Under the pieces are notes generated by a model that saw only the letters and a list, made by a program, of their open reading frames with translations, did no database searches and was not told where the DNA came from. Source: an uncultured delta proteobacterium (GTDB taxonomy: Bacteria > Desulfobacterota > Zymogenia > Zymogenales > Zymogenaceae). From it: DNA of 32,456 nucleotides. The position numbers and the translations under genes are program-made. Positions 20,001 to 24,416 of this stretch are shown here, piece after piece. Position 1 is the stretch's first letter; the number at the start of each line of letters is the position of its first letter. The DNA is taken from the NCBI GenBank assembly GCA_963792965.1, contig CAWBYW010000021.1:1-32456 (forward strand), read 5' to 3'.

Positions 20001-20348
20001 CTATCTCTCAAGCGGCCTGATTTCCGTATACGTCAGCTCCCCGTTCTCCAGATCCCCGGTTATCGATACCTTGGTATTAAGGAGCTTGTCAAGCTCCGGA
20101 TCACGCTGCCATAATATGCCGTGCTTGATGACATGGATCTCGCTATCGTCCCACAGCTGGAGGTAATAGGCGGGGCCCTCGGACTTCGTTCCGATATTGT
20201 CGAGCTTCGCAAACAGGTAACCGTCATAGGTCTTGGCCTTATACTGCTCGTTTTCCGCGGCGACCAGAGGATGTATTCCGGGGCCGACCAGGGAAAAGGC
20301 CGTAATTGCGATAAGGCAGACAATCACGAGGATTCCTTTGGTTTTCAT
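20001..20348 (-). CDS. Secreted hypothetical protein
   Basis: SD AAGGAGG. N-terminal signal peptide (MKTKGILVIVCLIAITAFSL...VAA) followed by a small beta-rich domain. Confidence 0.7.
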   Translation of the reverse strand: MKTKGILVIVCLIAITAFSLVGPGIHPLVAAENEQYKAKTYDGYLFAKLDNIGTKSEGPAYYLQLWDDSEIHVIKHGILWQRDPELDKLLNTKVSITGDLENGELTYTEIRPLER

Positions 20349-20511
20349 CGTTTCCTCCTTCATTCGATCGTTGACCTTGATTTTATCATCCTAAGGTGAG
20401 AAGCTCCAGCGTATTTATCCGCTCCGGCAGGGTTTTCGCATTTCATAGAGGGGTCTTCAGGCAGGAATTAATTTGAGGGAGGTCGCTGAAGGACCCGGGC
20501 GTACCGCGGGC

Positions 20512-21209: not shown

Positions 21210-22941
21210 TCAGAAGTTGAAAACCTGATCCAGCTCCGCGTCGGTGACCTCGAACACCTTGTTATGCGGCTTCAACAGCTCCGTTGTGAAGAACTTCGGG
21301 AGGCGGTCGTCGGCACTGGTGAACCCGGCCTTCCTGTTGAACTCCCGTTCCGTCTTAAGGACCGATTTACCGAGCGCGGTCACGTCGTCGGCGGTGAGCT
21401 TGAGGCCGTACTGTGCATTGAGCATCTCGTATATCCCCTCGAATGCCGCAGGGATGTCCAGGACGGCAAAGGCCACGAAGAGACAGAGCCCCGCGGTATC
21501 GACGGCGGCGGTGGCGATCTGAAGATTTCGAGACGTGTCCACTTGTCCTGTCGGCCTCAGCGGATCGACAAAGCCCCCCACCTTCAGGATATTGGGGGCG
21601 ATGGCATATCCCGGCGGTATGGTCGGCTCCCATCGGGGAGGTGGCGTAGGTAACGCCGATGCCCATGACCGGCCTCGGGTCATAGGCCGGAAGCCCCTGG
21701 CCCTTGACCACGGGGACCCGCGTTACATTGTACTCCTTGCCCGTGGCTGCCGCCCCGTTGCCGAGGATCAGGCCCAGCTCCGTCCCCTTCGGGACCTCCT
21801 TGAGCAATTCGATGGCGCCCTTGGCGTCGCCGAATTTCTTGACGCCGCCCTCCATCGCCACGGCCACCGTGTCGCCCCACTCGATGGTGTCCAGGCCGTA
21901 ATCGTCGCAGAGGCGGTCTATCTGCGCGATGGCGTCCAGATCGTCGATCCCGCAGTTGGCGCCGTTGGCCCATATGGTCTCGTACTCCGGCCCCTTCGTG
22001 AGATAGTTGCCGTCCTTATCATTATAGATGCGCGAGCACTGGATCACGCACCCGGGCATGCAGGCGTGGGCGATCTTCCCGCCCCGCTCGAGGATGACGT
22101 CGTGCTGCCGCTCGCCGCTGATTTTCTCCACGCCCTCGAATCTCCCCTCGGAGAAGTTCCGGGTCGGGTATCCGCCGGCCTCGTTGAGGATGTTGGCCAG
22201 GATATTCGTGCCGTACGTGGGAAGCCCCTGGCTGGTCACCGGGTGCGTCTTGAGGGCGTCAAGGAGCTTCTTCGAGGCCTTCTTGAATCCCTCCGGGTCG
22301 ACGGGCTTGGGCAGCTGGCCCCCGGCATCATCGACGACGACGGCCTTGAGCCCCTTGGATCCCATCACGGCGCCCACGCCCCCCCGGCCCATGTGCCTGG
22401 TGGGACGGTTCTCCCGGTCGGTGTTGGCGATGGACGCCGCCTTGAGGAGCATCTCCCCGGCCTGACCGATCGAGACGTAGCCGACCTTTGGCCCATATTT
22501 TGAGGTCAGCTTCGCGATTGTGTCGTAGTTGCCTAATCCCTTCAGGTCGTCGGCCGGCTCCAGCTTTCCCCCGTCCTTGTTCAGGACGAGCTTATAGAGC
22601 TTATTGCCTTTCGGCTTACCCTCTACGACGACGGCCGCGATCCCCATCCTGCCGAACTTGCTGCCGACGACGCCGCCGGCGTTGGCCTCCTTGATGCCGC
22701 CCGTCAGCGGGCTCTTGCACCCCACCGATATGCGTCCGGCGTTCGGCGCAGGAGTGCAGTTTAGGAGGCCGGCGGCGAATACGAGCTTATTATCTCTGCC
22801 GAGCGGATCGCACATCGGCGGCACCTCAGACGCCACGATCGTAGAGGTGAGTCCCCTGCCTCCTAGTCCCTTGTATTTGTCGGGGACCGGCTCCACCTTC
22901 ACGGAAAGGTTGTCCATATTGACTCGGAAGATCTTTTCCAT
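21210..22941 (-). CDS. aor: Aldehyde:ferredoxin oxidoreductase (tungstopterin AOR family), frameshift near 21610
   Basis: GLGGRGL, KSPLTGGIKEANAGG, GRGGVGAVMGSKGLKA, ACMPGCVIQC, GPEYET, CDDYGLDTI, AYDPR, GADH, and a C-terminal EREFNRKAG..DDRLP. Confidence 0.93.
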
Positions 22942-23001
22942 GTCAAACCCCCTGATAAGTTGATAAGCCCAGTGAACAGAGAAGTATCGCGCTTGGGGAA
23001 T

Positions 23002-23059
23002 AAAAAAAGGAAGCAACTACCAACGATCCTCAAGGAGTATCGTCGGTGGTTCTTCCTTT
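23002..23059 (-). terminator. Intrinsic terminator (attenuator) in the aor leader
   Basis: On the minus strand: GGAAG-AAC-C-ACCGACGAT-loop-ATCGTTGGT-A-GTT-G-CTTCC followed by T7, ~60 nt before the aor start. Confidence 0.75.
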
Positions 23060-23141
23060 GCAAACACGGCAGGGTAGCCGATTGCTCCGTTACCCTTATC
23101 GTCCCGGACATCCCAGGAGGATCTCCGGGATCGGAAGAGCC
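23048..23141 (-). ncRNA. Moco/Tuco (molybdenum/tungsten cofactor) riboswitch aptamer, P3-less type
   Basis: Minus strand: P1 GGCUCUUCC/GGAAGAACC, UCCGA junction, P2 UCCCGGA.AUCC/GGAU.UCCGGGA, P4 AGGGUA/UACCCU capped by a GCAA GNRA loop, and 3' CCUGCCGUGUUUGCAAAGG. As I recall it, this matches the Moco RNA 3' consensus CCUCCCGUAUUUGGAAAGG with a compensatory change. It lies upstream of aor and moaD-like genes. Confidence 0.85.
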
Positions 23142-23162
23142 GTTATGAATTAATGTAACTTA

Positions 23163-23191
23163 CCTATATACCAATCATAGACATATGTCAA
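23163..23191 (-). promoter_or_regulatory. Promoter of the riboswitch-aor transcript
   Basis: TTGACA at 23191-23186, with a -10-like TATAGG (17-nt spacer) or TGnTATATA. A GACATATGTC palindrome (23180-23189) overlaps the -35. Confidence 0.5.
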
Positions 23192-23327
23192 CAGCTTTTT
23201 ACGCTTGACCGGCCGCGGTCAACAAACGATCGATGTCGATTTACAGGTCTTCTTTTCCGTCCACACCGGCGGCGTGGCTAATAGTGGATACTCTCCCTCA
23301 ACCTATTAACGGGTGACGGCTGACAGC

Positions 23328-24416
23328 TTATTCAAATTTCAAATCGATCCCGCGATTCTGCGCGCGGGCAAACAGCCACAGGAGGAAGTTTTCCGGCGGC
23401 TTATCCTGCTCGGACTGGGGCCTTCTGACGAGTAGAATCGAATCGGTCGGACACGTCGATGCGCAGACGCCGCACCCGATGCATCGCGAGCCGTCTACCC
23501 GATAGGTGCCGTTCTCTTCGTGAATCGCGCCCACGGGGCACCGCTCATCACCGCACGTACCGCATCCAGAGCAGGTCTCAGGATCTATCCGGGAGACAAA
23601 ATTGCTCCGGGCCAGGAGGTGGGGCGCGTCAAGCTCCCTCATCCCGCGGATGAGGCCGCAGCAGCACGAACAGCAGTTGCAGACGGCGAAATGTCCCGTC
23701 TCGGTGTTATAGAAGGCGTTGTGAATCATGCCCCGTTCTTCGGCAAGCTTAAGGATGCCTTCCGCTTCCTCTCGGGAAATATCCCTCCCCCCGAGCGAGA
23801 AATCCCCCTCGCTTGTCTCTTTTGGCGAAAAAGAAAGGCAGACTTCCAGAGGATCATCGCACGGATGCCCCATAAGGGCTCGCTCCTTCCTGCAGATGCA
23901 CTCATTAACGTGGAACGATTTCGCGTCGACCATCATCTTTTTGACATCCTCGTAGATGAGCACCTCGCCCCTGGCTTCGATTGAGGCATTGACCGGAACG
24001 ACGCGGGCGATAGCCGGCGCAAAGCCGCCGAGGGTCCTGTTGAGCGTGGGCGCATACTCCTCGAAGAGCTCGGCAAGCTCCCTGTCTATCCGGTACATCT
24101 GAAACTCGTAAATGCCGACGACAAACGGCATCAACAGGTAGAACGGCTCACCTCCCCACGTCACGCAGCCTATCTGCCCTTTTTTCGCCATGGCATCGAG
24201 GATTGTCTTCATCTCGGACGCCGGCCTCGAGAGGCGCTCGGCTATCGTCTCCGCATTCTCGGGGATGGGTTTCAGCAGGAGCGCCGTTTCGGCGTCCCCG
24301 GGTGAAAATATCTTCTTAAGGATCTTCAGCTCTACGCCGTCTTCTGTGGGCGGAAAACCGTTTGGCAGCTCATCCAGGCGCTTTGCCAGCCGTTTGTATA
24401 CGTCATTCATCATCAC
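23328..24416 (-). CDS. 4Fe-4S dicluster domain protein (HTH-like N-terminus, Cys-rich centre, 2x[4Fe-4S] ferredoxin C-terminus)
   Basis: CICR...C...EVCL, CNCCSCCC, CSGCGTCGDERCP and CIGCGVCASTCP. Confidence 0.88.
   Translation of the reverse strand: MMMNDVYKRLAKRLDELPNGFPPTEDGVELKILKKIFSPGDAETALLLKPIPENAETIAERLSRPASEMKTILDAMAKKGQIGCVTWGGEPFYLLMPFVVGIYEFQMYRIDRELAELFEEYAPTLNRTLGGFAPAIARVVPVNASIEARGEVLIYEDVKKMMVDAKSFHVNECICRKERALMGHPCDDPLEVCLSFSPKETSEGDFSLGGRDISREEAEGILKLAEERGMIHNAFYNTETGHFAVCNCCSCCCGLIRGMRELDAPHLLARSNFVSRIDPETCSGCGTCGDERCPVGAIHEENGTYRVDGSRCIGCGVCASTCPTDSILLVRRPQSEQDKPPENFLLWLFARAQNRGIDLKFE

Follow-up and report, generated by a model that had tools for sequence, protein, structure and literature searches.

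The gene for an aldehyde:ferredoxin oxidoreductase (AOR) family protein in the window analyzed here (32,456 nucleotides; contig CAWBYW010000021.1 of assembly GCA_963792965.1, an uncultured delta proteobacterium) is preceded by an aptamer of the Moco/Tuco riboswitch family (RF01055), and the 3' strand of the aptamer helix P1 is at the same time the 5' base of an intrinsic terminator. Aptamer and complete terminator exclude each other, and the overlap between them is conserved in related genomes. We consider it probable that this element is a transcriptional ON riboswitch, with the tungsten form of the pyranopterin cofactor as its probable ligand. The element is a real riboswitch, and the ON-wired subclass of the known Moco/Tuco class that it would represent is what is new.

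A Moco/Tuco aptamer precedes an AOR gene

The initial annotation had described P1, P2, a GNRA-capped P4, a P5 of the form GC-CGUGUUU-GC and a following AAAGG on the minus strand, and each of these parts was located where it had been claimed. In the covariance-model search that had been proposed as a check, RF01055 (the Rfam Moco/Tuco model) matched positions 23148-23037 (-) with 39.6 bits and an E-value of 3.2e-6, which is marginally above the gathering score of 36, and the P3 positions were deleted in the alignment. The only further Rfam match in the window was a tRNA (25360-25288). With a model of the subclass described below (R1), the window aptamer scored 104.4 bits. Its parts are the following:

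23037 to 23148, minus strand: Moco/Tuco riboswitch aptamer, P3 absent, from the RF01055 match
23133 to 23141, minus strand: P1 5' strand GGCUCUUCC, with the conserved core UCUUCC at 23138-23133
23102 to 23130, minus strand: P2, a short hairpin without a CCUAAG/UAUGG-type tetraloop receptor; double changes in 6 of 12 pairs
23071 to 23096, minus strand: P4 hairpin with a GCAA tetraloop at 23085-23082; double changes in 4 of 11 pairs
23060 to 23070, minus strand: P5 (GC / CGUGUUU / GC), with an outer G-C pair where C-G is the family norm, from the RF01055 and 51-copy alignments
23057 to 23059, minus strand: J5/1 (AAA), a conserved junction and the partner of UUU from the U-run in the terminator state, from folding and alignment
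23048 to 23056, minus strand: GGAAGAACC, the strand common to P1 (3' side) and the terminator (5' base), from folding

P1 of the window consists of six conserved pairs and two outer pairs, with one C.A mismatch. The unpaired junction nucleotides (CCGA after P1, J2/4, the P5 loop and AAAGGA) fit both the Rfam consensus and an alignment of 51 copies. P4 carries a GCAA loop, but the short P2 lacks the receptor, which is a docking feature of the family; in the available part of Regulski et al. (2008; PMC2408646), the members with a GCAA loop, four in all, likewise had no receptor. With P3 deleted and an AOR gene downstream, the window element has the features of a P3-less ('Tuco/Wco') member.

The riboswitch leader runs from a TTGACA hexamer to the ATG start codon of the AOR gene at 22941, and a gene for a 362-aa 4Fe-4S protein ends 5' of it (stop 23328). 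Leader and genes comprise:

23186 to 23191, minus strand: -35-like TTGACA, read from the sequence
23165 to 23170, minus strand: candidate -10-like TATATA (spacer 15 nt), or alternatively TATAGG at 23168-23163 (spacer 17 nt)
21213 to 22941, minus strand: AOR family gene, interrupted by a +1 frameshift close to 21611-21613; AFOR_N 207.6 bits, AFOR_C 204.1 and 59.9 bits
20512 to 21153, minus strand: gene with ThiS/MoaD-like domains; ThiS 58.8 bits, moaD_arch 37.8 bits and below its cut-off

The frameshift corresponds to one extra base in a G-run (21600-21620), where a tblastn alignment with an intact 576-aa orthologue shifts between frames -1 and -2. The orthologous AOR genes of two relatives (G005 and G004) are intact and encode 576 aa. 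The interruption may reflect either an assembly error or a pseudogene; the source genome is a metagenome-assembled genome (MAG) of 88.85% completeness. The window element had been proposed as a clean test case, and the AFOR_N and AFOR_C domains are indeed found downstream, but given the one-base frameshift, an orthologous locus with an uninterrupted gene would make a cleaner test. The ThiS/MoaD-like gene is probably part of the same operon as the AOR gene. A 120-aa ORF (window 20001-20363, -) that separates the MoaD-like gene from an aldo/keto reductase gene encodes a hydrophobic N-terminus and gave no Pfam or NCBIfam match.

The leader adopts two mutually exclusive folds

Downstream of P1, the leader continues with the elements of an intrinsic terminator:

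23019 to 23047, minus strand: upper terminator hairpin ACCGACGAU...AUCGUUGGU, -14.6 kcal/mol alone, with 10 nt between its end and the U-run
23009 to 23017, minus strand: terminator 3' arm GUU-G-CUUCC (CUUCC at 23013-23009), nearly repeating the 5' strand of P1, from folding
23002 to 23008, minus strand: U7 tract, read from the sequence

A minimum energy of -68.2 kcal/mol was calculated for the 156-nt leader, compared to a mean of -44.7 kcal/mol for shuffled sequences (z = -6.08), and none of 200 shuffles was as stable. P2 and P4 are present in the corresponding fold, as is a long hairpin (23059-23006) that pairs AAAGGAAGAAC with GUU.CUUCCUUU, immediately 5' of the remaining U7, and P1 is missing. 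Since AAAGGAAGAAC is taken up by the long hairpin in a fold without P1, the aptamer and the full terminator are mutually exclusive, in agreement with the earlier prediction that the 3' strand of P1 doubles as the terminator base. This sharing involves 6 of 6 nt of the strand, and the hairpin of which it forms the 5' base (-27 kcal/mol) ends with CUUCC-U7 (23013-23002). In the comparison of folds that had been called for, enforcing P1 led to a leader of -57.6 kcal/mol, a loss of 10.6 kcal/mol relative to the terminator state, and with P1 in place the upper hairpin stops 10 nt short of the U-run. A 5' helix ACGGC/GCCGU that also appears in the window minimum-energy fold was set aside as it is unconserved in the alignment.

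When transcripts of different lengths were folded, the P1 fold was the minimum at 101, 105 and 135 nt, not at 120 nt, and the terminator fold was the minimum from 140 nt onwards, a modelled series that would leave a kinetic window for ligand binding. Given the greater stability of the terminator state, read-through would depend on ligand energy and on kinetics.

A consensus promoter and terminator scan of positions 22700-23500, in which the terminator search was restricted to loops of 3-8 nt and counted at most 20 pairs, found no site; nevertheless, the terminator reading was kept because of the folding results above and the conservation described below. A pattern TTGACA-N15-19-TANNNT, ending 8-24 nt 5' of the start of the aptamer model, occurs in 12 of 17 family copies, and the window has TTGACA alone. 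We also considered whether the hairpin simply ends transcription of the 4Fe-4S gene that lies upstream, and this was ruled out: the TTGACA hexamer lies between the two, and the hairpin accompanies the aptamer in 22 copies.

The overlap of P1 and terminator is conserved in relatives

RF01055 matched four times in the window's own genome and was present in 19 of 61 relative genomes searched, including 9/9 of the same family. In five relatives, matches of about 110 nt show the platform of the window, consisting of GCAAAGGAAGA, a variable hairpin and UCUUCCUUUUUUU. Eight aptamers were aligned (alignment A2) and used to build the covariance model R1. In A2, 87.1% of cells were paired, compared to 40-52% when partners were slid, and 0 of 500 shuffles reached as high a value. 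Double changes occurred in ten pairs, all of them in P2 and P4; P1 and P5 are invariant within the subclass, with 5 of the 6 P1 pairs invariant over the eight copies.

With R1, 17 copies of at least 69.8 bits were obtained in 10/10 genomes of the order, which here means this single family only, and the next matches reached at most 59 bits. Every one of the 17 copies precedes either an AOR gene or the gene for a selenocysteine formate dehydrogenase (FDH). Eight of them are distributed over six AOR loci, two of which have tandem copies with one terminator per copy, and the other nine precede FDH genes with a Tat signal and an in-frame TGA. AOR domains were confirmed with Pfam at five AOR loci (the window, L045, L052, L070 and L083). 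The FDH at L034, read through one in-frame TGA, matched TIGR01553 with 1137.8 bits (cut-off 814), and a Molybdop_Fe4S4 domain was detected at L051, L059 and L069; gene identities at the other loci were assigned from N-terminal sequences. Weak SECIS_3 matches, far below the cut-off of 63 bits, were seen just after the in-frame TGA of FDH genes at L069 (731-789, -; 31.7 bits) and L059 (2261-2319, +; 30.8 bits).

When RF01055 was applied to the same 17 copies, eight reached its cut-off, one scored 35.6 bits and seven were unreported at E<=0.01; the remaining copy was unreported in the RF01055 search of the relatives. Since the present Rfam model misses part of the subclass, leaders with an outer G-C pair in P5 before AOR and FDH genes are probably under-annotated.

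Outside the family, five further copies of the same design were found in five genomes of a phylum sample of 151 genomes (L069, L070, L075, L083 and L077). Among 80 AOR-orthologue loci from named public contigs, R1 matched upstream of the AOR gene in 21, and three Bacillota MAG loci before AOR genes (L142 and L145, both Thermincola, and L130) show the same subclass and the same terminator overlap.

In 22/22 copies of the subclass (17 from the order and five from the phylum sample) an intrinsic terminator, consisting of a hairpin and a U-run, lies between aptamer and gene, and in the minimum-energy fold 5-6 of the 6 nt of the P1 3' strand are paired with the arm adjoining the U-run. Hairpin energies range from -18.8 to -52.5 kcal/mol, and the upper stems vary in sequence and length among copies. 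The three strands involved change in concert: CUUCC/GGAAG/CUUCC, as found in the family, is replaced by UCUCC/GGAGA/UCUCC in L077. An enforced P1 raises the energy by 5-12.6 kcal/mol in 19 copies, and P1 was not enforceable in the other three (G003_a2, xG114 and xG146). Among the weaker cases are the first members of the tandems of G004 and G006, in which enforcing P1 leaves a remnant of 3 bp only. Two copies from outside the family count against an ON reading: with P1 enforced, the terminator of L070 is still intact, and in L069 a 6-bp A/U-rich hairpin then adjoins the U-run.

A separate antiterminator is absent from the G-C design. This bears on the suggestion that hairpin and U7 terminate or attenuate constitutively, or act as an OFF switch, and are not opened by the aptamer, in which case the element of the source genome may be a relic before a dead gene. 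Three observations would suit such an explanation: the minimum-energy fold is the terminator state, 10.6 kcal/mol below the fold with P1, the AOR frame is broken in this assembly and, in the parts of the literature available, the characterized family members are OFF switches. However, no candidate antiterminator segment is at hand for it, with complementarity between P5 region and terminator amounting to just 3-6 nt in the 22 G-C copies, and the element would have to silence intact AOR and FDH genes in 10/10 genomes, among them AORs of the full 576 aa; aptamer core and covariation have been maintained. We judge this explanation to be very improbable and favor the ON reading.

The outer P5 pair marks two subclasses

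Aligning 51 copies to R1 (alignment A3) and splitting them by the outer pair of P5 gave 22 G-C and 29 C-G copies; the loci had been collected with the two RNA models and include many related ones, and the subclass counts are descriptive and not statistical. P3 columns were found in none of the 51 aligned copies from the phylum sample, including those before moaA and tupA-like genes. The initial annotation had described the window element as P3-less, and this is correct, but the loss of P3 as a mark of this particular element had to be rejected.

The G-C copies have a short P2 without the CCUAAG/UAUGG-type receptor, a P1 that is mostly CUUCC/GGAAG and P4 loops of the GNRA type (GCAA, GUAA, GAAA or GAGA) with two exceptions, and they precede genes for AOR, Sec-FDH, one ferredoxin and one WD40 protein. 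The C-G copies have a long P2 with the receptor, a GAAA loop in 27/29 and a CUCC/GGAG P1. Their genes encode MoaA, MoeA, MoaC, TupA-like binding proteins, aldehyde dehydrogenase, the small subunit of NiFe hydrogenase and NuoG-type FDH, and also one AOR (L081) and one FDH (L085); these last two aptamers are without the terminator described here and count against the ON reading. As judged from the alignment, the flipped P5 pair, the short receptor-less P2 and the CUUCC/GGAAG P1 are the distinguishing marks of the G-C subclass. Both subclasses occur together in every genome of the order.

The overlap of P1 and terminator was present in 22/22 G-C copies vs 0/29 C-G copies, and this comparison gives strong support to the ON wiring that had been predicted for the window. 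A U-run within 115 nt was found in 15/29 C-G copies. In 8 of these 15 (which include two mis-parsed rows, L006 and L010), the P5 region contains a run of 6-10 contiguous bases with complementarity to the terminator region, compared to 1/22 in the G-C group, and in the C-G copies this is the predicted hallmark of classic antiterminator (OFF) wiring.

The unpaired junction bases are equal in both groups (J1/2 GA, J2/4 CGAUA-like, P5 loop CGUGUUU-like, J5/1 AAA), and for this reason one ligand with opposite wiring is favored. The architecture could be as proposed and the two subclasses could nonetheless sense different ligands, for example the metal-loaded cofactor and a precursor, or Mo and W forms, and so report different steps of cofactor supply. 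It would fit this idea that the flipped pair adjoins the conserved junction, that the flip tracks platform type and gene class perfectly (22/22 vs 0/29), that each genome of the order carries both subclasses and that about half of the G-C copies are below or outside RF01055 detection. We nevertheless think it rather unlikely: the differences between the subclasses are compensatory pair changes, the unpaired bases are kept and P3 is missing in both, and a single ligand with opposite wiring accounts well for the gene sets.

Several observations concern the genes of the C-G copies. In the window's own genome, the gene for an NAD-type aldehyde dehydrogenase (Aldedh, 229.7 bits) is preceded by two C-G aptamers in tandem (L001, contig C7:181690-182149, -), and C-G aptamers before aldehyde dehydrogenase genes were also seen at L009, L012, L014-L016, L027 and L028. 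This association suggests reciprocal control of aldehyde dehydrogenase (ALDH) and AOR by the same cofactor. At L012, L015, L016, L028 and L031 and in the second aptamer of L001, the P1 3' strand contains a Shine-Dalgarno (SD)-like GGAGGA, followed 6-7 nt on by a start codon. The ORF beginning there is a conserved one of 24 aa that ends with YFPPPI-stop (CFPPPI-stop in L031), and in L001 it has 35 aa with an internal NYFPPP; the polyproline run before the stop makes a stalling peptide possible. For those C-G copies that precede genes for aldehyde dehydrogenase and hydrogenase, an OFF logic is only suggested, by the SD-like GGAGG in P1.

At L059 (G003:C39), a C-G aptamer (1145-1325, -) precedes the gene for the small subunit of NiFe hydrogenase and a G-C aptamer (1501-1598, +) precedes a Sec formate dehydrogenase gene, and the two aptamer/gene units diverge from a single intergenic region. 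Hydrogenase and FDH riboswitch loci are about 6 kb apart in G002, G005, G007 and G009. C-G-like aptamers were also observed at AOR loci of Geobacter/Desulfuromonadales (L144, L148, L151, L157-L159, L161, L163, L165-L167 and L169), where some 40 nt separate the aptamer end from the AOR start codon and where the ribosome-binding region AAAGGAGA repeats J5/1 and the P1 3' strand; such leaders could be a translational ON design.

Proposed mechanism and ligand

According to the mechanism that we propose, transcription would start a few bases 5' of P1, and the aptamer (P1, P2, P4 and P5) would be the first part to fold. Binding of the cofactor would lock the junction and P1 (UCUUCC/GGAAGA), making GGAAGA and the AAA of J5/1 unavailable to the later CUUCCUUU; the upper hairpin alone would then form, 10 nt from the U-run, and RNA polymerase would continue into the AOR gene. 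If no cofactor is bound, the terminator 3' arm, whose sequence nearly repeats that of the P1 5' strand, would displace the six-pair P1, and the full -27 kcal/mol hairpin beside U7 would stop transcription. Locked P1 and J5/1 would withhold the GC-rich terminator base adjoining the U-run, with no third element involved. A consequence of this mechanism would be that AOR apoenzyme is made only if its cofactor is on hand, and gating the gene of an apoenzyme by the presence of its cofactor is sensible. Cofactor-dependent expression, a parallel to the proposed AOR control, has been described for E. coli torCAD in a source available in part. In the literature searched, much of it accessible in part, no experimental precedent for ON behavior of any RF01055-family member was found, and the same sources contain no published direct-binding assay for any member.

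Tungsten specificity of the window aptamer is plausible. AOR-family enzymes are tungsten enzymes, and in the window's own genome one C-G copy (L003) precedes the gene for a TupA-like tungstate-binding protein, for which NF041772 is the best match with 254.7 bits, below its cut-off of 400. The ligand might instead be the molybdenum cofactor, or the aptamer might not discriminate between Mo and W and might report the general supply of pterin cofactor. In favor of this, the same subclass would control formate dehydrogenases, which are able to use either metal, and the claim that loss of P3 means tungsten is based on a gene-content correlation in the available part of PMC2408646, where deletion of P3 from the E. 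coli RNA left specificity unswitched. In view of the AOR and TupA-like genes and of the absence of P3 from all 51 aligned copies, we regard a molybdenum or general ligand as unlikely and the tungsten form as the probable one.

It is possible, and we suggest it tentatively, that the two P5-marked subclasses of one cofactor riboswitch constitute a genome-wide toggle in these anaerobes. If so, the G-C subclass would, in the presence of the cofactor, turn ON the tungsten-dependent enzymes AOR and periplasmic Sec formate dehydrogenase, and the C-G subclass would turn OFF cofactor synthesis and tungstate uptake, together with the cofactor-independent substitutes NAD-type aldehyde dehydrogenase and NiFe hydrogenase. 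The supply of tungsten cofactor would then decide between the AOR and the ALDH route and between formate- and hydrogen-based electron disposal, and the flipped P5 pair may tune ligand specificity as well. Such reciprocal wiring, if true, would provide a molecular basis for the way in which trace tungsten steers formate vs hydrogen metabolism and aldehyde oxidation in anaerobes. Moco/Tuco RNAs are among the least characterized riboswitch classes, and their ligand is unstable; the available parts of two reviews state that few studies of the family exist, the cofactor being oxygen-sensitive (2023), and that the Moco/Tuco RNA structure is unknown (2024). In an ON-wired form, read-through would be a positive read-out of cofactor sensing, and the sister OFF form in the same genome would be a built-in control.

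Comparison with known systems

ON and OFF forms occur in other riboswitch classes. The proposed wiring resembles that of the pbuE (ydhL) adenine riboswitch, a transcriptional ON switch that works by direct competition and without a separate antiterminator. There, too, P1 supplies its 3' side as the 5' arm of the intrinsic terminator, although aptamer and ligand are unrelated to those of the window element.

For the RF01055 family itself, the comparison relies on three papers that were available in part. Regulski et al. (2008; PMC2408646) reported 58 of 176 members without P3, correlated with tungsten genes, as well as members with terminators and an OFF function for moaA. In Eubacterium limosum (PMC11725836), P3-less members precede WOR1, tupABC, iron transporters and focA. 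Like these 'Tuco' riboswitches, one of which lies before an operon for an AOR-family tungsten oxidoreductase (WOR1), the window element is a P3-less RF01055 member. The designs differ, however: translational control by sequestors of the ribosome-binding site (RBS) was proposed for WOR1 and tupABC, the WOR1 transcript level being unchanged under tungsten limitation, and fetABC1 and focA have terminator hairpins and show increased expression under W limitation, that is, OFF control. An ON-type Moco/Tuco/Wco platform was not encountered in the literature found, of which Figs S1-S4 of Regulski et al. (2008) and SI Fig. S10 of the E. limosum paper may show such a platform.

Tandem arrangements are known as well (PMC2408646; PMC9481103), and Sherlock et al. 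(2022; PMC9481103) described tandem Wco riboswitches before hydrogenase genes; Wco-type riboswitches in front of hydrogenase genes are also found among the present loci. In G004 and G006, two serial G-C riboswitches, each with its own terminator, precede the AOR gene (L037, 688-1040; L038, 630-980), and in this they are like the published tandems, whose descriptions, in the parts available, state neither an ON platform nor a subclass marked by the P5 pair.

The Moco riboswitch of E. coli moaA (PMC2408646, available in part) shares with the window element the RF01055 membership, the P1-P2-P4-P5 junction, the CCGA...AAAGGA core and a GNRA loop on P4. The moaA element has P3, contains the RBS inside P1 and switches OFF a biosynthesis operon. 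The window element differs in its lack of P3, its short P2 without a receptor, its flipped P5 pair and a P1 shared with a terminator, and it is located before the gene of an enzyme that uses the cofactor.
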